Shown here: positions 3,328 to 49,170 of the stretch, one piece after another | How the letters are laid out: every line of letters begins with the position of its first letter | How positions within the stretch are numbered: position 1 is the stretch's first letter | Source: Penicillus capitatus | Taxonomy: Eukaryota > Plantae > Chlorophyta | Reading direction: 5' to 3' | Assembly (NCBI GenBank): GCA_965649825.1 | Contig: OZ287696.1 | Coordinates: 62,001-126,000 of the forward strand | Length of the DNA stretch: 64,000 nucleotides | Made by a program: the position numbers and the translations under genes | The notes under the pieces: model-generated | Seen by the model: the letters and a program-made list of their open reading frames with translations, nothing else | The model's database searches: none | Told to the model about the DNA's origin: nothing

Positions 3328-4330
3328 TCAGGTCAAATCGATAGTCTTCTGTTTATTCTCTTTGAGTATGTGGACGATGTCTTTATAGTACGTTACGAAG
3401 CTGTGGTAGAGTCGGCCTTCCTGGACCAGTGCGCCTATCTCCTCTGATGGTAGTTCGTCTTGGTAGAACAGCTGTCTTCGTTTCTCTCTTAAGCCTTCGC
3501 ATCGGAGGACGTGGTCTCTTGTTTCTTGTTGTTTCCCGCACCCTCTGCATATGTCATTGTCTATTTCGGCTCCCTTTTATCGGCGGTATTCCAGTGTTGG
3601 CAGGTGTCCTGAGAGTACTTGATGGACTCGTGAGGCGTCGGCTCTCGTCCATGTCGTTGCTTGGAACTACGGTTATCTGGCTTTGCATCGTTTCCAGCCT
3701 GTAGCTTTCAGTTGATTTGATTTCTCCACTGTCTTCCATTGGCGGTCTGCTCTGCGTTCTATGAATTCTTTTATTTCCTTCACGTAGGTGTCTTTCTTTA
3801 TCCTCGATTGAATGGTTTGAGCTATGTCCAGCTCTTGTTTCCGTCGATCGGTTCTGCTCGTTTCTTTCTCCATCATTTGTCCGAGTTCGGCTCTGAGTAA
3901 ACTTAATGGAGTACAGTGAGTGGTCGGTTCCGGTGTACGGTGAGGTTCTTCTTCTCTCACTGCCGCTTGGGGTGCTGTCCTGAGGAGAGTCTCAGTGGCT
4001 AGTTCGCTGAGTGGTGTGATGTGGGCTAGTGCCGTGGCGATATCCATTGATGTTGTTCTGTCTAGGCCCGCTATTGTTAGGCCCGCTAATCTTGATATGC
4101 GGTCTATTCTTTTGGCGCCTTCTTGGGTCTTGAGACTGGTAATCCAAATCTCAGCTCCGTACAGTATTACCGGCTCGAGACAGGGTTTGTAGAGGTTTCT
4201 GAGTACTGTCGGGGCTATTCGCCAGTATGCCTTCGCCATCTTTCTGATAATGAAAAACTGCAGTGAGAGTGGCCAATAGACATACCAACACAACGGGATG
4301 TTTGTTAATGTTGGCCGTAGAAAAGGATGC
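3328..4330 (-). mobile_element. 5'-truncated, decayed non-LTR retrotransposon (3' end of RT ORF plus CCHC zinc knuckle); 3' UTR probably extends to about 3050
   Basis: LYKPCLEPVILYGAEIW...RLAGLTIAGLDRTTS..ATALAHITPL (RT thumb/connector). After a frameshift: ASRVHQVLSGHLPTLEYRR*...CRGCGKQQETRDHVLRC. This aligns with the C-terminus of the LINE at 12.2-15.0 kb (ASRVNQFLANHFPSKAY...CVCGQDVEDRDHLLYSC). Confidence 0.8.
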
Positions 4331-5614
4331 GTATCTTGAAGCACAACAACGTAATTCACGGGATCATTATTAGTTTACTCAAGATGATGGTTCCATTTTG
4401 TACTCTTCCGCCAGCGTGTTGTGCATTGTATTGGTAGTAGACTTATATATGTACGCCACGGCAAGTTCGGGTCACAGCTCGAGCAAATATGGCATCATAG
4501 GATCACAAAAAAGTCAAACGGTTCATAACACATACAAACATTAGGTCGTTGATGGTCTAACGTTTGCCAATTTAGATTACCGAATCAAAGTAACTATGAG
4601 TTGTAATGAGAAGAGCTATCAGCTTCAGTAAACAAAATTCAGTGTCCGTCGCCTATGTCAAGTCTTTTGCATTTCGAATTCGGAAAAATTCACACATTCC
4701 AAATCAAGTAGGAGATTGGGCCATTCGAAAGGACCGCGATTAAAGTAATACGTTTTAGTAAAGGAGCCTGGTTTTGGGCTTTTTGATAAAGATTCGCCAA
4801 AAGAACTAAGATAGGAGATTATTTCCTTAGAAGAATGTCGGAGGTGTTCTTAACATGAGTTTTCGATATATCTACTATAGTTTTATCCAATAGCCCGTCT
4901 AAACCCCTTCGCCTACCACATCGCTAGTATTTTCTCATCATGGTTTATGGAACACGAACATGGCCACTAACTGTGGTGCAAGTTTTACGGAAGTTTCGAA
5001 TCCGGTGCTTTAGAAGTTTAGTGAGGACGTTAAGGTGTGAGAAGACATTCGTGAGAATGTGTGTTTTATCTAAGAGAACGAATGTTGGAAATACTCGTTC
5101 TCTGTTTGAAGGACTTATTGAACCTCATAAAGAAGAAAGGTATTTGTTTCTCAAACCACAAAGCAACTGACGACACAGTTATCTACTTTTCCGTTCATCC
5201 CTTTCATTAGAGACTACCTCATAGTCCCCATAAGTCTAAACCTTATAGTGAGTGACACGACAAAACCCTGCTAAGAATTCACAAGAAGGTAGATTGAGTT
5301 TTTCGGAAGAAAGTGCGGATCCAAAACCGCACAAATATCAACCGAACGTGGAGTTCGTTTGTAATATCGCCAACCACACTTACTCTATATGGCCATGTTC
5401 TCTATTCCTTTGGAGCATTCTCTCCTTTTGTAAACCCATCGAACGCTGTCGCGTTGTCGGTTGACGACGAAGGCTTATAGCTTACAGAAGACTGTCAGAC
5501 AATGAAAGGTCGAGGTTAAATACCCGAGGAACGAACTAACAGGTAACATCAAGTGTTCCTGGGCCACTCGTTGGTCCACTGCGCTGAGCTGGGCATTACG
5601 TAACTGTGACAACG

Positions 5615-5990
5615 CTTGCTTTAATTGCTGTTTAGATGGTCTTTGCAATACCGAAAGGAAGTTTAATAACAACATACCAACAGCATCTTCTCAAATCTTT
5701 CTCGAATAAATAGGGACATGAGAGTTTACCTGTTTGTATAATAAATCCGGTCAATATAACATGTCAGGCTTTCGCAACCTCGTGTCTAGTGTTTCGATCT
5801 CCCTGGATCTTTAACCACACCCACTATCTATCATCAAGTCCTCTATTTCTTTTCGAATAATCTTCTTTTGCAAGCTCATCGAATGCTGGTTTTAATTGCT
5901 ATTTAATGGTTCTTGCAATATCAAAAGGAAGTCTGTTAACAACATGCCAACAGCAACTTCCCAACTCTTTTTCAAACAAATCAGGAAAGT
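5615..5990. repeat. Diverged direct duplication (~110 bp units at about 5615-5730 and 5885-5990) in an AT-rich tract
   Basis: tttaattgctgtttagatggtctttgcaataccgaaaggaagttt...aacataccaacagcatcttc versus tttaattgctatttaatggttcttgcaatatcaaaaggaagtct...aacatgccaacagcaacttc. Confidence 0.75.
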
Positions 5991-6327: not shown

Positions 6328-7254
6328 TGTTAGAACATGGAACGTCACAGTCAACTGACGTGACGTTCCATACAGATACGATGTACCAACGCACCTGTGA
6401 GTATACCTATCGCCGAGATTTCCACGGCGATGGGACTGCCTAGTAAGGAAGGGGCACGTTGGTGAGGGGACGCTTGCTGTCTTGTCAGAAGGGACCCTTG
6501 GGCTTCACGGGACGCTTTTCTCTGGTCATGGAAGTACGATGACTCATCTGCCTAGAATGTCACATCACTTAGACTGAACAAAAGGCTTAGGATTCGCGGT
6601 GTTTTGCTTCTTGTTTGTTGTTGTAAATCCTTTTTGTCTCGACCTTCCCTGTCGCTCTTGTCGCCAAGCCCTCATTGGAAAAGTGACTCCATCGGGGCCA
6701 AGGGGTCGGCTGTGAGAAGGGACGCTTGTTGTCATGTCACGGGGGCTCTGTTCTAGGAAAGGGTCCTTTTCTCTGGCTTCGCATTCGAGGTGACTCAACT
6801 ACCTAGAAGGTCATGTCATCAAGGCGGGTATAAAAGGGGGGCATTCTGAGACCTTTTTGTAAGCTTTTTCTTTTGTTCGGGCCCGCTCTGGCTAACAGTG
6901 ACGCTGAGTACAACATCCCGCGAGCGACTGTCCCATACGCACCGCTCTACCCGACTTTCCAAGAACGCCTTAACCGCTTTCGCCAAGGAGAGTCGTCGGA
7001 TCTACACCAACGAGGCGCAGAGCGCGTCATCGACAACGTTGGACTATACGACACCTAGCGGAATTCTGAGGACCGAGGCATCGACTTCGTGGCTTTCGCT
7101 CCCGAAGACCTTGTGACCCCGGGCCTTCTGAGACGTATCTCGGAGAAGAGGAGCCAGTAGACCCACCGACCGGCGACAATACCCGTCGTCCGATTCGTTT
7201 CTATCAGTTGCCTCGACGCGCCCAGACCTCTCGCGACACCCCTCGGTCCTAACA
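6328..7254 (+). mobile_element. Solo LTR, copy A (927 bp)
   Basis: Termini TGTTAGAAC...GTCCTAACA (imperfect inverted repeat). GATC duplicated on both sides (6324-6327 and 7255-7258). Internal U3-like ~115 bp unit present twice (about 6460-6568 and 6710-6820). TATAAAAGGGGG at 6829, TGTAA at 6858. Confidence 0.85.
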
Positions 7255-7274
7255 GATCCAATTTCCATTCGTCT

Positions 7275-8512
7275 TGCGACGTCAAACGTGGCCGAAAGCT
7301 CAACTCCGTAGAGAATTAATTCTTCCTGCGCATGTTGTTCTGATGGGATACAAAACGGAGAACATTTAGAGAATGAACATTAAAACGGACGCGCATTATC
7401 ACAGATATGTAACTGCGACGACCCTGTACGTTTTCACGAACGAACAGCCTGTTGGTCCGCTGGCTGATCAAGCGAAGAAGTCTTAGGCGACGGTTTGAAG
7501 GCCGTCAGGACTGGTCGCTTGAACGTGAGGAAGCAGTCAGCGACGGTTAAGAGAGCGCTCGAGAGGGTCGAGAAATGACCGAAGTAGGGTGAAAGTCGAG
7601 AATTGGCAAGTATCCAGAGTTCAAGTCTGGGTGACGTGTATTCTCAGAATGGTGGAAAAACGTCACTGTCATCTGTGAACACTTAGACACTCGCCAAAAA
7701 TCTCAGAAACTGGTGGAATTCGATGATTGCTGAGGTCGCAGCGACGTCGAGTTTAGCGCTGCAAATGACCTGCGAGGTGCAAGCGACGTCGAGTTCTGAG
7801 CCGAAAGTCTGAGGCGACGGACGATGCTGTAACCCTGAGTGATCAGCCTGGATTACAGAAAAGGGCGAGGAAAGCGTGGCAGTCAGTTGACGTGACGAAA
7901 TGGACAGTCAACGCGCTGAGAAGAAGACGCAGCCAGTGGTAAAAGCTTGAAGATGCAGCGTCGCAGTGAGGCGAAGACATGAAATTGAGGTGTCGCCAAG
8001 AGGCGACGTAAGACGCGAATTTAGTGTGTGTAACTAAGAAAAACGCAAATGAAACGGACAACATGGGCATATAGAATAAGAACTTTAGGGGCAAGTTTCG
8101 GTTTAAAAGCTTTCGGTGTTGCGTGCATATTCTGTCGATCGAGTCGCTTTGCGCTGCTAACGACTACAAGCGTAATCCCGCTGCCGTGCTGACGATTTTG
8201 GCCTGTTTTTCAGTGCCAATTCTGCCCCATCGTCGCATAGTACTGCAGAAAACCAACACAGCCTACCGCGAACACGCGTTCCTTTACCGTTTCAAGCGAA
8301 TCACACATCAATGTGCCGTTCTTTGACTTTTTTAAAGACACCAAGCGTTCGCAAAATCGTTGGATTCGTTCTTGCCAGCAGCAGCAGTTGCGATACCTTG
8401 ATATCACATCATATCATCGTGCCTTTCATCAATAAAACTAAGAGTGCCTGCGGACACCGATTGCATTTCTGGAGTTTTTTGCGATCATAATACAGTTTGA
8501 GGGACGCACGAT
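7275..8512 (+). repeat. Dispersed repeat X, copy 1 (about 7275-7331 plus 8340-8512, split by about 1 kb of unrelated sequence)
   Basis: gcgacgtcaaacgtggccgaaagctcaactccgtagagaattaattcttc and ttttaaagacaccaagcgttcgcaaaatcgttggattcgttcttgccagcagc...gagggacgcacgat match 17264-17522 colinearly. Confidence 0.75.
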
Positions 8513-9533
8513 ACAGGAGAGCTGTCCCTTTTGCCTCTTTTAAGGATTCTCATGGAGCGGTGCCCTCCGGCGCACAAGACACGACGTCGTTCACCACATC
8601 CAGGTCGTTTTTTGGCATCAAATACCCCACCGGATGTCCCGAAGGACCACCATCAGTCTCGGGAGTTCGTCGGGCAACGAGATCTCGGTGCTCAGCCCAT
8701 TGGGTTCATAGAATCGAAGCTAGATGCTGTAGTGAGTCATCGCTGGATGTTGACCTTGGCAATTGGCTTAGCGTTTGTGATCTGTGACATGGACAAGGTG
8801 AGATTAAGATGCGACAAAGATAGTGAGAAAGTGTGATGTAGTGTAGAGTGGGCGGTGAGAAAGTTCTGTTAGTGGGGGTGGCGCTGTGGTCCTTGGGGAC
8901 ATTTCTGGCACCGTCTGCGACACACGTCGGCTTCCTCACGCTATGCGCTTCCCGCGTCTTGGTACATCTCACTCTCCAAAAGAGTGAGATCAAGCATGTT
9001 GGATGGACAGGTGGGTTTAGCAGAAGGACTGGCGCCTTCTGCTGCCACATGTGTGTTGTCAAAACAGGTTCCGACATCATCAGAGCGTTCACGGGCCGTG
9101 TCCACCGTCTTCGGAGGATTGGATCTGGGTTGTACCTGCCTTTTCACGACAGTGCCTGATGTGACTTTATTGATGCAGAGCCGTCCAAATTGATCTTCAT
9201 CTCGAAGACGGTCAATACCACGTGCCTCTGGATGGAATTCATCGTAATGTCCGCGAGCACGATCCAATTCCTTTCCCCACAAACTCCACAGATCCTGACA
9301 TCACACATTCTCACTTTCCTCTCAGCTTCCCATCTCACACCCAACAATGTCACTCGTGCCAGTCTCCTTGCTGGCTCTTGTGGGGCTTGAACAAACAGGC
9401 TGCACTTGGGACATCTCTCCAGATTCCGCTTGTGCACGGCATCAGCCCTCAGTCGCATCAACGGCAGTCCCTGGAGTACCACCACTTCACAAAATCTTGC
9501 CTCCTTCGTGCTCAACCGAAATCATACATCTGA
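8497..9533 (+). pseudogene. PHT4;5: Fragmentary plastid anion/phosphate transporter, PHT4;5/ANTR6-like
   Basis: RWMLTLAIGLAFVICDMDKV, GGEKVLLVGVALWSLGTFLAP and GLAEGLAPSAATCVLSKQVP..ERSRAVSTVFGGLDLG match PHT4;5 as I recall it. The ~45 aa between MDKV and GGxKV are missing, the transit-peptide frame is shifted relative to the domain, and the C-terminal half is absent. Confidence 0.7.
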
Positions 9534-9781
9534 GTCAAGGACGTAGGCGACATAGGTGCAAAGGGGAGCGCCGTCTTGTGTCGGGGTCGACAGTGTTCCG
9601 TGGTGGACAGTACTGACAACGGTCTTGGCCGTTTCGCCGATGGAAGGCGTGGCGAACCTTCGCACACGAGTACACGGTCTGGCGTGTGTCGGCAGCACTG
9701 TCAACGCACGCTTTTCCGCCGGAGTGTCGTACAACGCCTCACTCGTCGATCTTGATCGTCTACTTCTGTCCGGCGTCGAAA

Positions 9782-11411
9782 ATGAAGCGCCTAACGCGCT
9801 GCGTCATACCAATCACACGACCCACACTCTCTGTCTATCGCATGAACACGCATACCATTCCTATACCACGCAGATCTTCGGCCAAGAATCGACCACCATT
9901 ATGTCCCTCATCATCTCTGGCGACGCCAGATCAAGAGCGCGCCGAAAGTGAGAGGTTGATGAGAATGCGCGAGAGAGAAGAGAGTGAGTGATTTGCAGAT
10001 GTGGAGAATAAGGCAGAGGTGGGTGAGATGCAGAGGACGAAGGTGCTGATTGCCAGAGCTGGGGTTACAGGATTGGCGACTGCTTTGGGTTTATTGAAAC
10101 AAGGATTCGACGTCGTGATATTCGAACGAAATCTGACGGCGATCCGAGGCGAAGGAAAATACAGAGGGCTTATTCAAGTGTGATCTCTGTTGCTTTGATT
10201 GTATCGGATGCATGCATCAATGATGTGACAGATCCAGAGCAATGCCTTGGCTGCTTTGGAGGCGATCAATGCCGAAATGGCAGAGGAGGTCTTCGAACAG
10301 GGGATGGTCACAGGAGATCGTATCAATGGACTTTGTGATGGCTTGACTGGAGAATGGTATGTGAAGTTCGATACCTTCACACCAGCAGCCGTAAACGGAT
10401 TGCCTGTCACACGTGTCATCAACACGGTCACGCTTCAAGTGCGAAAAAAGAGTGAGAAGTGAGTGAGATTGATACGTCATGGCAGGAGATCCTGGCACGA
10501 CATGTGAAGAAATGGTCGGATCGAGGAGAGGGAGTGATCTGTGAAGACTGTCACGTCGTCGGGTACGAAGAGAGGGAAGCTGTCGGGAAGGTGGCCATTG
10601 TTGGCGAGATGGTGATGGGACGGCGCATTGATGGGGGCATGATGGAGCGAACACGGAGAAGGAAGGCGATTGAGGGGACTGTCTGGCTGACGATGGGTGC
10701 ACGGCGCCAAAGGGCAGTCAGGGTCTTGTCAGAGGGGGCCTTAGTCGTTGGAGGGTCCTGATTCTCTGGCTCGGGACGAGGGGTGACTCGTCGGTTTAGA
10801 GGGTCACATCACCTGAGCAGGTTAAAAGGGGGGCAAACTTTGGGTCTGGAGCTTCCGTTGTAAGAGTTTGTTCGGTGTTTGGAGCCCGGACATTCAGTCT
10901 GGCAGACGACGAGAGACAATCGGTTTCGCGTGCGACCGTTCGGTATCCGCCGTTATACCAGAACCCTCTGTTCCTCGCGGCACTCGGACATTTTCGGGAG
11001 GCAGAGCGCCGGAGTATCGACGCCACTGATCTGTTTCAGCGGGGCGCCGATCGGGTGGTTCATAACGCCGGGCTGTTTGATTCTCGACGTAGCTCGACCC
11101 AGGACGACCGACCCGAGCTCGTGGTAGAGGGCGGGCCATCAAATCTTGGGGTGGAAGTAGGGGAACAAGGCTTCACTACACGTGATAGCGGCCCCGTAGT
11201 GAGTCCGACGCGACAAGGCCGACAGCCATCGTTCTCGAAAACGGAGAAAGGCACGAAGGAGATCTCCTCGTCGGCGCAGACGGCATCTGGTCCAAAGCAC
11301 GGATCGCACTTTCGACCTCGCGCATTTCGCATGACTCTTTTGTGTCACTCAGATTCGGACACAACTCTTTGGACCGGCAGCACCGACCTATTCGCAGTAT
11401 ACATGCTACAC
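9782..11411 (+). pseudogene. ZEP: Zeaxanthin epoxidase pseudogene, 5' part, interrupted in an exon by solo LTR B
   Basis: KVLIARAGVTGL (FAD GxGxxG motif broken), AIRGEGKYRGLIQ|IQSNALAALEAI, GDRINGLCDG..GEWYVKFDTFTPA..GLPVTRVI, KVAI[LTR]VLENGERHEGDLLVGADGIWSK|IRTQLFG...YSQYTCYTG. Confidence 0.92.
10599..11224 (+). mobile_element. Solo LTR, copy B (626 bp), same family as copy A
   Basis: Termini TGTTGGC...GCCGACA with a perfect 5 bp TSD GCCAT (10594-10598 and 11225-11229). Removing it restores ZEP K-V-A-I-V-L-E-N-G. Shares the U3 unit, GTCACATCAC, TTAAAAGGGGGG and TGTAA with copy A. Confidence 0.92.
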
Positions 11412-12215: not shown

Positions 12216-14972
12216 TTCTTAGCAAGCAATTCCGAAACTCAGACTGACATGTGGAAGACGGTTAGAAGAATCACCAAAGCACAGAAGCGTCCAGCGCTAG
12301 ATTTCGTGCAGAACCAGAATGGAGACATCCTCCACGACCCAGCAGACATCGCGGCGGCTCTACAAGTAAAGTTCTTCCCGATATCGGAAGTCACACCTCA
12401 AGACAGCACACGCACAACAGAAACTTTGCTGCCTCGATTGCAAGCTGAAGACATACCTCCGGTCTCAGATTTGGAAGCACGGAAATCCTTCGGCAGCGGA
12501 CGCCCCCTAGCGGCCCCGGGGCCGGATGGCCTTCCCAATGCAATCTATCAGAGATGCATGAACAGCATCTGCCCACGGCTCAAGGAACTTGCCTCTGCCA
12601 GTCTCCAGCTCAGCATCTGCCCACAGCACTGGAAGCATTCCCAGGTTGTAGCCCTCCACAAGGGCAACAATCCGGGACACGAGGTCGGCAAACTACGGCC
12701 CATCAGTTTACTCAACACACTGGCAAAAGGCATGGAGACACTCGTGGCATCACGGCTGAAGTACTGGGCAGAGGCAAACATGGTACTGGACCCCTTTCAG
12801 TTTGGTTTTAGACCTACAAAGAGCACAACAGACGCACTGCTCATGGCAACTGATTGGATTGCAGAACGCACCCGAAGCGGTGGCATTGTCTACGGAGTTG
12901 CTCTCGATCTTGTTGCGGCCTTTGACTCCATCAGCCGGGCATACCTGGTGCAAACGCTCAGACAATTGGAAGCCCCTCCGTTTCTGACCCATTGGTGCAG
13001 ATCCTTTCTTCAGGACCGCACGGCTGAACTGCTGATCTCTGGCATCAACTTCACCACGACGACACTCGCCGGCGTCCCACAGGGATCTCCCTTGAGCCCG
13101 CTGCTGTTCATTTTAGGGGTCAATGCTGCCTTGCAGATCCCAAAGGGCACAGGGGTGCATCTACAGGCGTATTCAGACGATATCCTTCTCCTATGTAGTG
13201 CGCCATCAGACGAACTGGCCCGTCACAGGGCGCAGAAGACCTTGGATCAACTAGTGGAATAGAGCCGCGTAGCTGGAATGCAGTTCTCGGAGAAGAAGTG
13301 CCTGGCGATTAGATTTCAAGAGAAGGTCAGACGATCGGAGATGCTCCCGCTGTATCTAGGCACGGCCAAGCTCAGAGCAGTCAAGAGTTGTAGATACCTA
13401 GGAATGATTCTAGATGAAAGACTTACTTGGAAGCCACACCTGCAATTTGTTCAACAGCGCGCCCGGGAACGCCTGGCCGTCATAAGAAGGTTCTCAGCTA
13501 AGACTTGGGGTTTCTCACCGGAAGCTATGTGGCAACTTACGACCAAGGCACTGGAACCAGCACTGTACTACGGAGCAGAAGCTCTAAGCCGCATCCAAGA
13601 CTCCCCTCAACACCTGCTCATCCTCAACCGAGTCGTTCGCCAAGCTGGCCTCCTGATCTCGGGATGCCTGAGAACTACCTCCTACGAAGCAGTTTTCGCC
13701 CTGGCTGGCCTCCTCCCAGCGCAAATGGAAATCAAACGCAGAATTCTCTACTGGCATTTACAGAAGGACAAAGGAAGAATGCCTTCGACGGTCTCCGAAC
13801 TTCACTCAGACAACTGCAAAGATCCCGGCCTACTCCGTCGCAGACTGACTGCCAGACAATGGCACCGGAACCTCTCAATCAAACAGCAGTTTGAACTTCC
13901 ACCGAAGGAGCTGTGCAGCTTTCCCCCAGAACTGGTGGGTTTCCTGGAAGCAAACGTAGAGGAAGATCACCGTCCAGAATGGATACTCGCAGTGGCAGAA
14001 GCAGATCTAAACTCCACAAACGGAACAAGAACGGCCATTGTTTGGCAGCTCACAGGGAGGCAGAATATCGCCGGGAGAGGGGTTTTGGCTGCGCCGCACC
14101 AATCAATAAAAGCGGAGGTGCTGGCGAGCATCCGAGAAGGTTTATACTCCCTGAGTGATCTCCTTCATGAAGCAAACGGTCCACAGTCCCTCGGCATCAT
14201 CGCACGCAGAAGCATATATCAACAAGAGCTTACATCCTCGTTCAACGTATACAAGGACATGCACCTCATCCAACAGTGGTGGATCAAATGGACAATGGCC
14301 AGCAACCAAGTGAAATGGTTCACACAAAGCTGCCCCCCAGGTCGAAGCCCCTACCAAGCAGCCAAACTCTCAGCAGAACACGGTCTGGCGCAGTCACGAA
14401 GTCCACCCCAAGCAGCGAAGTACACCGCCCTCGGTTGGTGTAAAAGACACATCAGCTTCACACTAAACAGTTGGACACAAGAACAACTGGCCAACGGTGA
14501 CAAGGGAAGAGCAATTCTCGACCTAAACCCCCCGATGGGGAAAGGACATTTCCCCGCGAGGAAACTTCAACGCACCGAAGCCTCACGGGTCAATCAATTT
14601 CTAGCAAACCATTTCCCGTCCAAAGCATACCTCAGACGCTTTCACTGTTCAGAAGACGAGGAGACATGCGTATGTGGCCAAGATGTAGAAGACAGAGATC
14701 ACCTGCTCTACTCCTGCCCTCGCCTGCACCGACGAAGAATGATCTACAGACAAGAATCTCAAGCTGAAGCGGAACAGTCCCACCCCCTCTGAAATGCCCC
14801 TCACGCTCTGGCGGCTTTCCTGGAAGAACTCGCCCAAGAATGGCAGAATCAAGGAAGGTCCTGGCACTGATGCGGCCCCCGGCATGGTGCGACTGTACTC
14901 CTGAACACTAGATTTGGCCCTCTCCTCTGATGTTTAACTTGAAAAGGGGATGTAAGAATCGCCAATTTTATT
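12216..14972 (+). mobile_element. 5'-truncated non-LTR retrotransposon (RT, degenerate RNase H-like region, CCHC knuckle) with one in-frame nonsense codon
   Basis: PGPDG, RPISLL, QFGFRP..ST, LDLVAAFD, GVPQGSPLSPLLF, YSDD, YLGMILDERLTW. ORFs 12249-13262 and 13278-14792 are in frame across a TAG where Trp is expected. 14 bp TSD AAGCCGGCATATAA at 12202-12215 and 14973-14986. Confidence 0.95.
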
Positions 14973-14986
14973 AAGCCGGCATATAA

Positions 14987-16901
14987 AACGACGTATTTTG
15001 TATCAAACACAGCCTTTTTAACACGTTTACGATTTTTCCGCGCTCACACGAAAGACCAGCACATCAAGACGGTTTCGGAGCTACGACTCTCGAAGATGGA
15101 CCGTGAACAGTTCACGTCCCTTCTCGACTCGGCAGCTTTCGTGGAAGACAATTACCGCCCACGCCTGAAATACGTTGTCGAAAGGTTGGAACCTAGGTCC
15201 CCGGCATTCGACCTCGTACGTCAAGAGCTCGACCGAGTGGAACCGCACTTCGAGGGACTCGCGGCATTTAATGCAGCATTCGCCGGACCCGCGGCGACGG
15301 TGCGCGCCTTCTGGGGAGCCGCACTCCCTAACGTGAGAGCGGCGGACAGATGGCGCGTCTGAGGGAGCTCCTCATTGGGACATGTCCGTAAACGACGTTG
15401 TCAGCGGAAGAACGACTAGCGAAGATGACGAAGACAAAAGGGGAAACGTGCTGTTCTCCTATTTACCTGGAAACCTGAACCAGATAGCCGACCAGCTTTC
15501 CCGATTAGACTCGAGTGGAGTTACGCAACAGCCCTTAGACAAGGCGATCATGGCGATTGACCGCCCCTCGGAACAAGAGATCTAACGCAAGATACGTTCC
15601 GCCCACTTCGGACGCTGGGGATACATGACGACGCTCCAGAACCTGCTCCTCGAGTCGGAGAGGTGGCCAAACATGGAACGGGACGTGCGCAACTTCCCGT
15701 CGAGTTGTCCGAACTGCGCCTTCAACGGCGAAGAGCAGAGGAGGGATGTCCCGAGCACCGAAATATCTCGCAGAATCGGCGAGACAGTGTCCATGGATCA
15801 CTGTAGGTTATTTTTCGACGGATTGCATATCCTCGTAATTGTGGACGACGCGACAAAATGGGTAGAGGCTCTGAGAACCCCAGGAACTGGAGCCGTGCAC
15901 GCCATGAGAGCGTTGGATCAATGGCAAACAAAGCACGGAAGGATCGAGCTGCTTTGCACGGACAATGCAAGCGCTTGGAACTCAGACACCTTCCGACGAT
16001 GGGCAGCAGACCGACGCATCGACACGAGGAGAAGTCCGAGTTATCACCACCAGGCCAACGGATTGACAGAGCGCACCATCAAGACGGTGTGCAAGCGAAT
16101 CAGGCGCTTCCTAAATGGGTCGACGAGGGCGTGGCTCCAAGTGATACAAGGAGCCGTGGACGCCATCAACACATCGTGGAGCTCGGTGATTAAGACCACG
16201 CCGCAGTCTCTCATGCTAGGCCTCGATCGACACGGCGTCTTGCTGGACGAGAAAACAAGCCGAAAGGCTTGGGAAGATGCGTGGAGAAACGCTCAGATCG
16301 CCAAGACATACGAGCACGAGCGATTCAAGTGGAAACACCTGCGGTTGTCGAAGCCACTGCGTCCAGGCAATCGGGTGCCGATGAAGAATTACCACCGGTC
16401 GAATCACCCACTCGGAAAGCTGGGCCCGAAGTGGATCGGTCCCTTTATGATCGAAGAGCAGAGATCGGAATCGACCTGGATCGTGCGAGAGTGACGAGGC
16501 TCACCGCCTGTTCTGGTTCATTCCTCCCAAATAAAGCCCTATCTAACATAAAATCACCTAGCGGGAACGATTTTTATACTTTCCCTCAAGTCGTGCACGT
16601 CGTCTCCATGTGGCCTCTTTTTCCTTCGGGGTTTGCGCTCGGAAGGTGATGAGCCCATGTCAGACCAAATGAAACACAATGAAGGCATTCCCGACTGTAT
16701 AAGGGAAGTCACATGAGAACCTACTACATGTCACATCAGAACCTCTAACACTATAAAAGGGGGACAAAGCGTTGTTTACGTCATTCTGTTTAAAGTCTTC
16801 CTCTAATGCGTGTGTTTGTTCACCGACAACGCGACATGCTTCCATCCGTCGCTTCACATGTCTCACAGTGGCTGCGACGCTTGCCTGAAAAGGGTGAGAC
16901 A
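14987..16901 (+). mobile_element. Internally deleted Ty3/gypsy LTR-retrotransposon remnant: leader ORF, RNase H tail, integrase and putative 3' LTR (about 16658-16901)
   Basis: YLPGNLNQIADQLSR (RNase H C-terminus), WPNMERDVRNF..SCPNC (Zn-binding remnant), SMDH...IVDDATKWVEA, TDNAS, PSYHHQANGLTER (rve core), GKLGPKWIGPF (GPY/F motif). The LTR-like end runs TGTC...GACA and contains GTCACATCA followed by TATAAAAGGGGG. Confidence 0.85.
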
Positions 16902-17263: not shown

Positions 17264-17522
17264 TTTGCGACGTCAAACGTGGCCAAAAGCTCGACTCCGT
17301 AGAGAAGTAATTCTTCGTGCGCGTGCGCAATTCTTCATTTTTTTAAAAACACCGAGCGTTCTCAAATCGTTCGGATTTGTTCTTGCCAGCAGCGTCACTC
17401 TACATCCCTTCCTATCGCGTCACCATATGTGCTTTTCGTCAAGAAACTACGCGTGTCTGTGGACAGCGCTTGTATTGCTTAAGGTTTTTTGCGATCAAAT
17501 CACCGTTCAAGGGACGCACGAT
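17264..17522 (+). repeat. Dispersed repeat X, copy 2 (uninterrupted)
   Basis: Colinear match to 7275-7331 plus 8340-8512. Confidence 0.75.
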
Positions 17523-37594: not shown

Positions 37595-40500
37595 ATGGCA
37601 CGCGCCGCCATTTTTAGACTCTTCGTCTGCCTGACGGCGGGTTTTGTTTTGGCGACGAACGAATACGGTAAGATTCCGCTTTTTGGTCTGACAGCAAGGC
37701 GTGAACTTGAGCAGAGAACTCCGAATGCGCTCTTTCCGCTTCGTCTATGCCCGTTTGCGGTAAAGACGGCGTTACATATGCGAAACCGGCATGTGCATTA
37801 CGAGCTGGGGTCGATCTCAACTGCATGGGCGAATGCCCCTGTGCACAAAGCAGGTGTCCGAAAATCGGCCGACCGGTCTGCGGCAAAGATGGAAAGACGC
37901 GTGGCAGCGTGTGTGAACTTCGTTTTGAGAGGGTCGAACTTGCGTGTCGCAAAGCATGCCCGTGCGAGGAGCCATGTACGTGCAACGAGGAATACGAGCC
38001 TGTGTGCGGCGCCGACGGGAAAACCTACGGCAACAGGTGTCTGGCTAAATGCGAAGGGGTTGACATTGCGTGCAAAGGCGAATGTCCATGTGAAGAATGC
38101 AAGTGTCCGGAAAGCCGCGGTTTGGTGTGTGGGGATGACGGGAAAACGTATAGCAGTGCATGCATGGCAAAATGTACGGGTGTCGGCGTCGCTTGCAGAG
38201 GCGAATGCCCTTGCGGCACAGGAAGGTGTCCGAGATTTGGTCGGCCGATTTGCGGAAAGGATGGAAAGACGTACGGAAGTTTGTGTGCGCTTCGCCATGC
38301 GAGAGCGAAAATTGCTTGCGAGGGAACGTGTCCGTGCAAACCGAAACCCTGTCCCGCCATCCTTGCTCCAGTCTGCGGATCTGACGACAAGACGTACGAC
38401 AATGTGTGCCTGGCACAAGCCGCCGGTGTCGACGTCGCATGCGAAGGAGAGTGCCCCTGTCCTCCTAAAACATCGGAAGTCTGTGTCTGCCCAAGGATCT
38501 GGGAGCCAGTCTGTGGCGTCGATGGAAAGACGTATCCCAACGAATGTGCAGCAAAATGTACAAGTGTCTCTGTGGCATGCGAAGGAGAGTGCCCCTGTCC
38601 TCCTAAAACATCGGAAGTCTGTGTCTGCCCAAGGATCTGGGAGCCAGTCTGTGGCGTCGATGGAAAGACGTATCCCAACGAATGTGCAGCAAAATGTACA
38701 AGTGTCTCTGTGGCCTGTGGAGGAGAATGTCCCTGTACTCCTAAAACAACGGAGAAACCCGAAGCATCCGGAAAACCGGAGAAACACGTAGTGTTCAGAA
38801 AACCAGAGAAACACGTAGTGTTCAGAAAACCAGAGAAACACGATAAGCCGAAGAAACCTGAAGCCTGTCTCTCCTGTCCTCTGATTCTCGCGCCTGTTTG
38901 CGGCGCCGATGGAACCACTTACGACAACGAGTGTCTGGCCGATTGCGCGGGAGTCGAGGTCAAGTGCGACGGAGAGTGCCCTTGTGAGCCTGAGAAGCCC
39001 GAACCAACTGTCGAGCCGCCATCAGTAGAGGTGCCTGAGCCTGAAGTCTGTCAATGCCCCAAGATCTTGGCTCCAGTCTGTGGCGCCGATGGAAAGACAT
39101 ACGACAACGAGTGTCTGGCCGGTTGCGCAGGAGTCGAGGTCAAGTGCGACGGAGAGTGCCCTTGTGAGCCTGAGAAGCCCGAACCAACTGTCGAGCCGCC
39201 ATCAGTAGAGGTGCCTGAGCCTGAAGTCTGTCAATGCCCCAAGATCTTGGCTCCAGTCTGTGGCGCCGATGGAAAGACATACGACAACGAGTGTCTGGCC
39301 GGTTGCGCAGGAGTCGAGGTCAAGTGCGACGGAGAGTGCCCTTGTGAGCCTGAGAAGCCCGAACCAACTGTCGAGCCGCCATCAGTAGAGGTGCCTGAGC
39401 CTGAAGTCTGTCAATGCCCCAAGATCTTGGCTCCAGTCTGTGGCGCCGATGGAAAGACATACGACAACGAGTGTCTGGCCGGTTGCGCAGGAGTCGAGGT
39501 CAAGTGCGACGGAGAGTGCCCTTGTGAGCCTGAGAAGCCCGAACCAACTGTCGAGCCGCCATCAGTAGAGGTGCCTGAGCCTGAAGTCTGTCAATGCCCC
39601 AAGATCTTGGCTCCAGTCTGTGGCGCCGATGGAAAGACATACGACAACGAGTGTCTGGCCGGTTGCGCAGGAGTCGAGGTCAAGTGCGACGGAGAGTGCC
39701 CTTGTGAGCCTGAGAAGCCCGAACCAACTGTCGAGCCGCCATCAGTAGAGGTGCCTGAGCCTGAAGTCTGTCAATGCCCCAAGATCTTGGCTCCAGTCTG
39801 TGGCGCCGATGGAAAGACATACGACAACGAGTGTCTGGCCGATTGCGCAGGAGTCGAGGTCAAGTGCGACGGAGAGTGCCCTTGTGAGCCTGAGAAGCCC
39901 GAACCAACTGTCGAGCCGCCATCAGTAGAGGTGCCTGAGCCTGAAGTCTGTCAATGCCCCAAGATCTTGGCTCCAGTCTGTGGCGCCGATGGAAAGACAT
40001 ACGACAACGAGTGTCTGGCCGATTGCGCAGGAGTCGAGGTCAAGTGCGACGGAGAGTGCCCTTGTGAGCCTGAGAAGCCCGAACCAACTGTCGAGCCGCC
40101 ATCAGTAGAGGTGCCTGAGCCTGAAGTCTGTCAATGCCCCAAGATCTTGGCTCCAGTCTGTGGCGCCGATGGAAAGACATACGACAACGAGTGTCTGGCC
40201 GGTTGCGCAGGAGTCGAGGTCAAGTGCGACGGAGAGTGCCCTTGTGAGCCTGAGAAGCCCGAACCAACTGTCGAGCCGCCATCAGTAGAGGTGCCTGAGC
40301 CTGAAGTCTGTCAATGCCCCAAGATCTTGGCTCCAGTCTGTGGCGCCGATGGAAAGACATACGACAACGAGTGTCTGGCCGGTTGCGCAGGAGTCGAGGT
40401 CAAGTGCGACGGAGAGTGCCCTTGTGAGCCTGAGAAGCCCGAACCAACTGTCGAGCCGCCATCAGTAGAGGTGCCTGAGCCTGAAGTCTGTCAATGCCCC

Positions 40501-41691
40501 AAGATCTTGGCTCCAGTCTGTGGCGCCGATGGAAAGACATACGACAACGAGTGTCTGGCCGGTTGCGCAGGAGTCGAGGTCAAGTGCGACGGAGAGTGCC
40601 CTTGTGAGCCTGAGAAGCCCGAACCAACTGTCGAGCCGCCATCAGTAGAGGTGCCTGAGCCTGAAGTCTGTCAATGCCCCAAGATCTTGGCTCCAGTCTG
40701 TGGCGCCGATGGAAAGACATACGACAACGAGTGTCTGGCCGATTGCGCAGGAGTCGAGGTCAAGTGCGACGGAGAGTGCCCTTGTGAGCCTGAGAAGCCC
40801 GAACCAACTGTCGAGCCGCCATCAGTAGAGGTGCCTGAGCCTGAAGTCTGTCAATGCCCCAAGATCTTGGCTCCAGTCTGTGGCGCCGATGGAAAGACAT
40901 ACGACAACGAGTGTCTGGCCGGTTGCGCAGGAGTCGAGGTCAAGTGCGACGGAGAGTGCCCTTGTGAGCCTGAGAAGCCCGAACCAACTGTCGAGCCGCC
41001 ATCAGTAGAGGTGCCTGAGCCTGAAGTCTGTCAATGCCCCAAGATCTTGGCTCCAGTCTGTGGCGCCGATGGAAAGACATACGACAACGAGTGTCTGGCC
41101 GATTGCGCAGGAGTCGAGGTCAAGTGCGACGGAGAGTGCCCTTGTGAGCCTGAGAAGCCCGAACCAACTGTCGAGCCGCCATCAGTAGAGGTGCCTGAGC
41201 CTGAAGTCTGTCAATGCCCCAAGATCTTGGCTCCAGTCTGTGGCGCCGATGGAAAGACATACGACAACGAGTGTCTGGCCGATTGCGCAGGAGTCGAGGT
41301 CAAGTGCGACGGAGAGTGCCCTTGTGAGCCTGAGAAGCCCGAACCAACTGTCGAGCCGCCATCAGTAGAGGTGCCTGAGCCTGAAGTCTGTCAATGCCCC
41401 AAGATCTTGGCTCCAGTCTGTGGCGCCGATGGAAAGACATACGACAACGAGTGTCTGGCCGATTGCGCAGGAGTCGAGGTCAAGTGCAAGGGACAATGTC
41501 CATGCAGAAAAGGAAAATGCCCAGACTTTGTGAAAGAAATGTGCGGAAAGGATGGAGTGACCTACAAAAACCTCTGCACGCTCAGACATGCTCGTGTCGG
41601 AGTGGCATGTGAAGGACCATGTCCCTGTCCCAAACATTCAGAATTTTTCTTTGGCTATTCTGGATATCTGAACAAACGCATCGTTGTTTGA
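37595..41691 (+). CDS. Secreted multi-domain Kazal-type serine protease inhibitor 1 (24 Kazal domains)
   Basis: Signal exon [20 protein letters not shown], one phase-1 intron, then repeated C-x-C-x7-C-G-x-D-G-x-T-Y-x-N-x-C-x3-C units. Confidence 0.92.
38921..41487 (+). repeat. Coding tandem array, 14 x 180 bp; units identical except at one G/A site
   Basis: The sequence repeats every three 60-nt lines from about 38.9 to 41.5 kb. The only variable position is the codon ggt/gat at 39121+180n. Confidence 0.97.
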
Positions 41692-47077: not shown

Positions 47078-49170
47078 ATGTCTCTTTCTAAACTTTTAGT
47101 CTGTCTGCTGGCGACGTTCGCCCTTGGGGTCAGCGCATATGGTGAGATCTAAAACATGCTTTCGTTTAAAAAGCGTTCGCGTGTTTAGTTGAGCACGAAA
47201 GTCACGGTGGAGCGACATGGGGACCAGGGAATGTCCTCGCAAATGGTGAATGTGGCAGCATTGGCAAACCAGTCTGCGGCGTAGATGGAAAAACGTATGA
47301 CAGTCTTTGCGCGCTGAAGAAGAAGGGAGTCAAAAAGGCGTGCGAGGGAGAGTGTCCGTGCAAAGCGTGCGCTTGCCCTTTGAATTATGATCCAGTCTGC
47401 GGTGCCGACGGGAAGACATACGACAATGCATGCGGAGCCGATTGCGCAGGAGTCGAGGTTAAGTGCAAGGGAGAGTGCCCTTGTGAGCCTGAGAAGCCCG
47501 AACCAACTGTCGAGCCGCCGCCATCAGTAGAGGTGCCTGAGCCTGAAGTCTGTCCCTGCCCCAAGATCTTGGCTCCAGTCTGTGGCGCCGATGGAACCAC
47601 TTACGACAACGAGTGTCTGGCCGATTGCGCAGGAGTCGAGGTCAAGTGCGAGGGAGTGTGCCCTTGTAAGCCTGAGAAGCCCGAGCCGGAATGCGTCTGC
47701 TCCTTGGACTATAGACCTGTCTGCGGTGCCGATGGAAAGACATACGGCAATGAATGCGAAGCAAAGTGTGACAAAGTCAAAGTCGCATGCGCGGGCGAGT
47801 GTCCATGTCTGGAAGACTGCATTTGCCCTTTCAATTATGATCCCGTCTGCGGTGTCGATGGCAAGACGTATCCCAACGAATGTGTAGCGGAATGTGCCAA
47901 AGTCAAAGTCGCATGCGCGGGCGAGTGTCCATGTCCACCACCCATCTGTCCTGCCATCCTTGCCCCAGTCTGCGCATCCGACGGAAAGACCTATGACAAC
48001 GAGTGTCTGGCCGAGGCCGCCGGTGTCAAAGTCGCCTGCAAAGGAGAGTGCCCTTGTCGCACAGGCCACTGTGCGGAGATTTATAAACCGGTCTGTGGCG
48101 TCGATGGAAAGACGTATGGCAGTCTGTGCAAGCTTCGTCATGCAGGGACCGATCTCGCATGCGAGGGAGAGTGCCCTTGTGAGCCTGTCAAACCCGAACC
48201 AACTGTCGAGCCGTCTCCATTAACAGAGGAGCCCGAGCCCGAAGCCTGTCCCTGCTCCAAGATCTTGGCTCCAGTCTGCGGCGTCGATGGAACCACTTAC
48301 GACAACGAGTGTCTGGCCGATTGCGCAGGAGTCGAGGTCAAGTGCAAGGGAGTGTGCCCTTGTGAGCCTGTCAAACCCGAACCAACTGTCGAGCCGTCTC
48401 CATTAACAGAGGAGCCCGAGCCCGAAGCCTGTCCCTGCTCCAAGATCTTGGCTCCAGTCTGCGGCGTCGATGGAACCACTTACGACAACGAGTGTCTGGC
48501 CGATTGCGCAGGAGTCGAGGTCAAGTGCAAGGGAGAGTGCCCTTGTAAGCCTGAGAAGCCCGAACCAACTGTCGAGCCGTCTCCATTAACAGAGGAGCCC
48601 GAGCCCGAGCCGGAATGCGTCTGCTCCTTGGACTATAGACCTGTCTGCGGTGCCGATGGAAAGACCTATGGTAACGCCTGCGAGGCAAAGTGTGCTGGCG
48701 TCAAAGGGGCCTGCAAAGGCGAATGTCCATGCCGAAAAGAGATCTGCACTCTTGAATACTATCCAGTCTGTGGTGTTGATGACGTTACATATGGTAACAA
48801 GTGCCTGGCCGCAGCTGCCCATGTCAAAGTCGCATGCAAAGGCGAATGTCCTTGCAAGACGAAATCTTGCTTGTGCACCAAAGAATACAGTCCGGTCTGC
48901 GGAAAGGATGGCAAGACCTATGACAATGCCTGTGTGGCAGAATGCAATGGCGCCGAGATCAAATGCGATGGCCAATGTCCATGCAGAAAAGGAAAATGCG
49001 CAGACTTTGTGAAAGAAATCTGCGGAAAGGATGGAGTGACCTACAAAAACCTCTGCACGCTCAGACATGCTCATGTCGAAGTGGCATGTGAAGGACCATG
49101 TCCCTGTCCCAAACATTCAGAATTTTTCTTTGGTTATTCTGGATATCTGAATAAACGCATCGTTGTTTGA
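47078..49170 (+). CDS. Secreted multi-domain Kazal-type inhibitor 2 (13 Kazal domains)
   Basis: Signal exon [21 protein letters not shown], phase-1 intron gtgag...tttag, Kazal repeats including a 186 bp internal duplication; C-terminus shared with inhibitor 1. Confidence 0.92.

Follow-up and report, generated by a model that had tools for sequence, protein, structure and literature searches.

Ty1 of yeast is a copia-type retrotransposon whose Gag starts at an AUG and draws few codons from the long terminal repeat (LTR). According to the part of PMC4974528 that deals with it, the primer-binding site (PBS) for the initiator methionine tRNA (tRNA-iMet) lies inside the GAG coding sequence of this element. 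The glyco-Gag of murine leukaemia virus (MLV), gPr80, is described in a section of PMC3265304 as starting at a CUG (nt 357) downstream of the PBS (nt 146-163). For the Gag-protease arrangement, the comparison is with the Ty3/gypsy elements (Metaviridae), as outlined in PMC2774666. Retrotransposons also encode transmembrane proteins in separate open reading frames (ORFs), such as the env-like extra ORFs of plants, which according to the relevant passages of PMC7264820 usually lie downstream of pol and ahead of the 3' LTR, and the insect sORF2, as summarized in 10.1101/2025.03.14.642691. The LTR motifs in the pertinent part of PMC3601003 are presented without coding frames. Here, we describe a reading frame shared by two solo LTRs, LTR A and LTR B, in a 64,000-nt stretch of the green alga Penicillus capitatus (assembly GCA_965649825.1, contig OZ287696.1, positions 62,001 to 126,000), referred to below as the window. 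A literature search of mainly open-access main texts turned up neither a description of the family nor any report of an algal Gag with a long, non-AUG extension encoded in the LTR.

A first-pass annotation of the window had taken this frame for a small protein or upstream ORF that would make each solo LTR a self-contained expression cassette. We consider it probable instead that the frame is the N-terminal portion, approximately 100-120 residues long, of a green-algal Gag-protease, encoded in the unique 5' region (U5) of the LTR and likely started at a CUG, and that its presence in solo LTRs is a side effect of recombination. This proposal is based on the conservation of the frame as protein and on two further observations: in relatives, the conserved block runs unbroken into Gag-protease, and solo-type partners of these relatives diverge from them at the junction that follows the block. 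The features on which the argument depends are the following:

6408..7178, plus strand: solo LTR A, true extent (771 bp, TATCG...CGACA); its first letters deviate from TG...CA.
6829..6862, plus strand: TATA box (6829) and TGTAA (6858) of LTR A, from the sequence, with the putative U3/R/U5 border.
6888..7058, plus strand: ORF A, between a candidate CTG start (GCT CTG G) and the TAG that closes the frame; 56-residue conserved core.
7059..7178, plus strand: broken rest of the frame in copy A, in the same frame until 7124 and then shifted, to the LTR end.
10599..11224, plus strand: solo LTR B (626 bp, TGTTG...CGACA), with a 5-bp target-site duplication (TSD), GCCAT.
10822..10863, plus strand: TATA-like box (10822) and TGTAA (10859) of LTR B, from the sequence.
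10899..11224, plus strand: ORF B, from a candidate CTG start (AGT CTG G), stop-free over 108 codons as far as the LTR end, from the sequence and variants.

As the first-pass annotation had stated, a single plus-strand frame in each LTR copy holds both conserved peptide blocks (6921 and 6999 in A, 10929 and 11028 in B), in which 20 of 28 residues are identical and 14 of these 20 use different synonymous codons. The mismatches between the blocks fall 5/4/22 on the three codon positions, giving proportions of nonsynonymous and synonymous differences (pN and pS) of 0.16 and 0.93. BLASTP aligned ORF A with ORF B at 45% identity (E 9e-15), and the indels in the core alignment preserve the reading frame. 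Best ungapped DNA blocks were taken as well, to avoid block choice by protein: a 113-nt U5 block gave 9/7/29 mismatches by codon position, and a 100-nt control block from the non-coding U3 gave 11/13/14. Further copies of the frame are present in contigs from public sequencing runs, a second organism included. Among the 31 ORF B variants listed from other copies and runs, distributed 3/6/22 by codon position, 21 are synonymous, 10 nonsynonymous and none leads to a stop. The purifying selection proposed in the earlier annotation is borne out by these counts, which indicate that the LTR frame is under selection as a protein.

An HMMER profile built from A and B matched 45 proteins; excluding P0038, a repeat artefact, leaves 44 true relatives. 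These are mostly 72-242 residues long, with tails unrelated in sequence, as would be expected of frames that comprise an LTR plus flanking DNA. The earlier annotation had proposed checking whether the frame joins gag, and in some relatives it does. P0018 (724 aa) and P0029 (670 aa) carry the conserved block at the N-terminus and continue into an aspartyl protease; in P0058 (734 aa) and six further cluster members, the block is likewise joined to Gag-protease. The protease that follows Gag in the relatives is a retropepsin, and its best match in the fold search was the protease of equine infectious anaemia virus (Z 13.6, root-mean-square deviation 1.9, 102 residues aligned). In a tree of the relatives (42 rows, with 4 rows skipped), the Gag-joined P0018, P0029 and P0058 fall at three separate places.

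The near-identical short/long pairs P0020/P0058 and P0040/P0018 diverge at the N/D-M junction, within N/D-M-V-S-E-R, as is expected of an LTR end followed by a tRNA-iMet PBS. The pattern [MVI]-V-S-E-[RL] occurs at the junction in 13 proteins, and the V-S-E-R peptide matches the tRNA-iMet PBS motif read in frame; the putative PBS of the relatives is visible solely as this peptide. In P0060, the junction differs (R-Q-V-V-S-E-R), the frame still crosses it and the AUG is placed later. The predicted proteins thus show the frame to be the front of a Gag-protease ORF in the A-like lineages. For the B-like lineage, there is a faint indication of the same arrangement, in that the N-terminal linker of P0060 has the B-like P0003 as its best match (0/5000 shuffles; best of 45 comparisons).

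Several observations weigh against the Gag-extension reading. Only 2 of the 44 profile matches are Gag-joined, and among approximately 11 B-like matches we found no Gag-joined protein with a B-type core. The direct BLASTP comparison of P0060 with ORF B was not significant (E 0.83), and a word-based search found no long protein sharing words with ORF B among 462 candidates. The PBS, the CTG codons of the relatives and the pol order rest on predicted proteins; the metagenome and viral contigs that we searched yielded no DNA locus of a relative. Finally, a second A-like copy carries the same TAG as copy A and aligns without gaps across the frame shift of A.

A defective common ancestor, the same mutation arising repeatedly or a subfamily in which the stop is genuine could each account for this shared TAG, which keeps alive, for the copy A subfamily, the idea of a free 56-residue core peptide that ends at the TAG. 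Gag would then start separately at the junction AUG, and solo LTRs could express the peptide. The TAG at 7056 sits just past the most conserved part of the frame, and the second A-like copy, which differs from A in 9 of 30 nearby letters, has five of its six listed changes at third positions. Nevertheless, this copy has an additional one-base gap, as decayed copies do, and the frame is fused to Gag in other lineages. None of the 44 relatives ends at the position of A's stop, all being open past it, although short ORFs are called less often. Additionally, the homology of copy A goes on beyond the TAG, as found by tblastn with P0018, P0029, P0058, P0009 and P0021, and through the frame shift near 7124, an extent that the first-pass annotation had missed; the frame of copy A is disrupted by a stop as well as a frame shift. 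We therefore regard a free peptide as improbable, and the self-contained solo-LTR cassette as unlikely. Reassignment of TAA and TAG to glutamine, which would open the stop of A, was rejected: four long ORFs in the window contain 80 glutamine codons and no in-frame TAA or TAG, indicating that the standard genetic code applies.

With respect to the start codon, the statement that the frame lacks an ATG held downstream of the TATA box in both LTRs. The TTG (6873) and GTG (10875) codons once considered as starts were rejected, since they lie upstream of the family conservation, which begins abruptly at [T/I/S/N]-L-A-[D/N] with nothing conserved further upstream. We anchored 33 of 45 proteins at this point (12 had no anchor), with a pattern in which Leu had to be followed by A or E, and this requirement partly predetermines the count. 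The residue preceding Leu is T in 17, I in 9, S in 5 and N in 1 (n=32), and a codon beginning with a pyrimidine is needed there in 0 of 32 proteins, vs 9-16 of 24-31 at positions -2 to -8. All four DNA copies use CTG for this Leu, preceded by a purine at -3 and followed by G at +4, and other Leu codons vary. Because of the shared descent of the relatives, neither the -3 nor the CTG count consists of independent cases. The purine context of 11 guessed host starts (6 with a purine at -3) was uninformative. Based on the abrupt conservation, the purine-compatible preceding residue and the invariant CTG in strong context, a CUG at 6888 (A) and 10899 (B) is the likely candidate start.

The TGTAA located approximately 30-40 nt 5' of the candidate CTG matches the chlorophyte poly(A) signal UGUAA, which the relevant part of PMC1868727 places approximately 17 nt ahead of cleavage; the CTG would consequently fall in U5. 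Against this assignment, TGTAA was not enriched downstream of 15 ORFs of the window (5 sense, 6 antisense).

The same Gag extension could instead receive an AUG by splicing, from an upstream exon or through the GTAAG donor, rather than start at a CUG. Both copies have GTAAG followed by AG 41-46 nt on, which would fit the approximately 55-nt host introns of the gene that LTR B interrupts, and the L-A-N/D codons may spell a branch-point-like word. Nevertheless, neither copy has an ATG between TATA and GTAAG, none is created across the splice joints, the AG position varies between the copies, and splicing at GTAAG would delete the conserved Leu-Ala codons, so that we give this source of the start little credence.

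An RNA structure or an antisense gene as the origin of the pattern is extremely improbable: although the antisense frame that shares third positions also shows synonymous changes (17 synonymous and 14 not among the 31 listed variants), it acquires a stop in 3 of these variants and has stops in copy A, as previously noted, the indels of the A/B core preserve the plus-strand frame, four segments of U5 are no more stably folded than their shuffled versions (z 2.0, 0.7, -1.3 and 1.3), and the fusion to Gag-protease in relatives largely refutes the idea.

Returning to the Gag extension, the protein to which it belongs is unusual in its predicted architecture. After the junction, the long relatives have a hydrophobic segment, a coiled coil, a conserved C-x-D-L-x-C-C motif with a Trp-rich stretch, and a second hydrophobic segment, followed by a second coiled coil, a nucleocapsid knuckle of the CCHC type, the protease and a Q-K-N end. 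An N-x-T site, a conserved site for N-glycosylation, stands directly after the first hydrophobic segment in all four proteins having that segment; Gag is predicted to have two membrane segments with a luminal coiled coil between them. The knuckle has the variant spacing C-X2-C-X3-H-X3-C and the ORF ends in Q-K-N in 5/5 long relatives, an end that would fit an A-AAA-AAC frameshift site. In the structure model of ORF B, two helices occupy residues 23-53 and the remainder is of low confidence. Pfam gave no match to ORF A or ORF B, the model of the N-terminal domain had no match in the fold search, and the ESM Atlas gave no usable match to ORF B or to Gag residues 105-530. No capsid domain was matched by Pfam, PDB profile, Atlas or fold searches, with a poor Gag model (mean predicted local distance difference test score 49) and lists filled by protease matches; the whole Gag model retrieved only protease and generic coiled coils.

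As in Ty1, the Gag frame begins upstream of the PBS, here a putative one; unlike Ty1, the algal family has approximately 100-120 LTR codons with a conserved helical domain and no AUG. Its resemblance to MLV glyco-Gag lies in an in-frame N-terminal Gag extension, on the algal side with a candidate CUG start in favourable context and a predicted link to the endoplasmic reticulum (ER) and glycosylation. In contrast to MLV, the algal CTG lies within the LTR, and the extension is upstream of the PBS peptide. The signal sequence of MLV is within the extension, so that the long form alone enters the ER, whereas the algal hydrophobic segment follows the junction AUG and would thus be in both forms; MLV Gag has a capsid domain, and none was detected in the algal Gag. 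By analogy, the algal extension would work like MLV glyco-Gag without being a member of that group. With Ty3/gypsy, the family shares TG...CA LTRs, a 5-bp TSD, C-terminal zinc knuckles and a retropepsin D[ST]G[AS] motif, and it differs in the knuckle spacing and in its Gag, where a luminal coiled coil and two membrane segments are predicted instead of a capsid that can be recognised. Whereas the env-like ORFs and sORF2 are separate, the algal element encodes its predicted membrane segments within the Gag-protease ORF.

We infer the CUG start, the translation and the membrane topology, which together suggest the following scheme. Transcripts of the 5' LTR would start near TGTAA, and ribosomes, meeting no AUG, would initiate at the CUG approximately 30-40 nt downstream. 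Translation would pass through the two-helix conserved domain and an acidic linker, cross the PBS as V-S-E-R and continue into the hydrophobic segment, the predicted luminal glycosylated coiled coil and the second membrane segment, and then, on the cytosolic side, into a coiled coil, zinc knuckles and protease. If ribosomes pass over the CUG, initiation would occur at an AUG that coincides with the LTR end or closely follows it, and the hydrophobic segment of the resulting shorter form would serve as its signal peptide. In the long form, made by leaky CUG initiation, the N-terminal domain would stay in the cytosol and the segment would be a signal anchor; both forms would be inserted in the ER membrane, knuckle and protease facing the cytosol. 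Selection would act on full-length elements, and every LTR copy would inherit the outcome. A further possibility, which we put forward as rather doubtful, is that this green-algal clade lacks a canonical capsid and builds its particles on ER membranes from one structural protein alone, a double-pass membrane glycoprotein that starts at a CUG in the LTR and is joined to nucleocapsid and protease, with leaky CUG vs junction-AUG initiation setting the ratio of the two topological forms. Its Env-like ectodomain would consist of the coiled coil, the C-x-D-L-x-C-C motif, the Trp-rich stretch and the membrane anchor.

U5 is normally treated as non-coding in annotation and in LTR dating, and here approximately 300 nt of it are under protein constraint, which would distort LTR-based ages and leave the real beginning of Gag unannotated. 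Should the CUG start and topology prove true, a glyco-Gag-like strategy extends beyond vertebrate retroviruses, and a membrane-anchored Gag without a detected capsid would be a new way of building a retrotransposon particle. What looked like a hidden gene in solo LTRs is thus something simpler, although the protein it belongs to is stranger.

The surroundings of the two LTRs include three further features:

6328..6407, plus strand: left part of a separate, hairpin-bearing 151-bp repeat split by LTR A (fold z -3.6).
7184..7254, plus strand: right part of the 151-bp repeat, in deep, variably flanked contigs.
10028..11290, plus strand: gene for a flavin adenine dinucleotide (FAD)-monooxygenase, split by LTR B; ORF B is out of frame with it.

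LTR A and LTR B have the terminal ends and TSDs of solo LTRs and no internal region, the first letters of A aside. The extent first given for LTR B (10599-11224) was accurate, and an empty site for it occurs in runs X1 and X2 (joint 10593-11225, 631 bases skipped). The ends first assigned to LTR A belong to the 151-bp repeat: the 5-bp TSD of LTR A, ATACC, is at 6403-6407 and 7179-7183, its 5' end aligns with that of LTR B, and another copy terminates at 7178. A frame meeting the end at 7254 in phase was accordingly rejected, LTR A being nested and ending at 7178. In run X2, a loose contig end before 7187 shows the repeat without LTR A and with a single ATACC, agreeing by eye with 6378-6407 in 24 of 30 letters. 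Summed contig depth at 7224-7255 is approximately 10x that of the flanks, with varied flanking sequence. ORF B extends by chance into flanking DNA, to 11426.

The 151-bp repeat is multi-copy; its ends are TG...CA and it contains a strong hairpin. In many independent copies, GA or GATC comes next (contigs ending at 7255-7258), which suggests a GATC target preference with a 4-bp duplication. In a second organism, a run X5 contig at window position 10932 has the right end of the repeat abutting a B-like frame, suggesting the reverse nesting of repeat and B-like element. The U3 of LTR A contains a ~100-bp internal duplication (6463-6561 / 6715-6812, 71% alike), and the duplicated block is a motif block also found in LTR B. 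The interrupted FAD-monooxygenase, which we presume from its resemblance to be zeaxanthin-epoxidase-like, has an altered glycine motif. The sequencing runs contain filled and empty LTR B sites and two versions of the downstream exon.

Elsewhere in the window, a Gypsy remnant (15400-16828) retains an RNase H end and an integrase with a GPF motif; its ~170-bp 3' LTR (16658-16828) shares the TATAAAAGGGG box, without a long U5 frame. A non-LTR retrotransposon reverse transcriptase lies at 12216-14792, with one in-frame TAG at 13260, and a second such fragment at 3673-4374 on the minus strand. One gene of the window has its closest named relative in Ostreobium quekettii (56% identity). Two large cysteine-rich repeat ORFs of 1326 and 666 aa (37711-41691 and 47170-49170), one with ~14 near-identical 180-bp units, are presumably Kazal-like, judging from a motif. 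Dispersed repeats, 76-92% alike, pair 8328-8512 with 17339-17522, 7274-7334 with 17265-17325, and 5611-5711 with 5882-5981.

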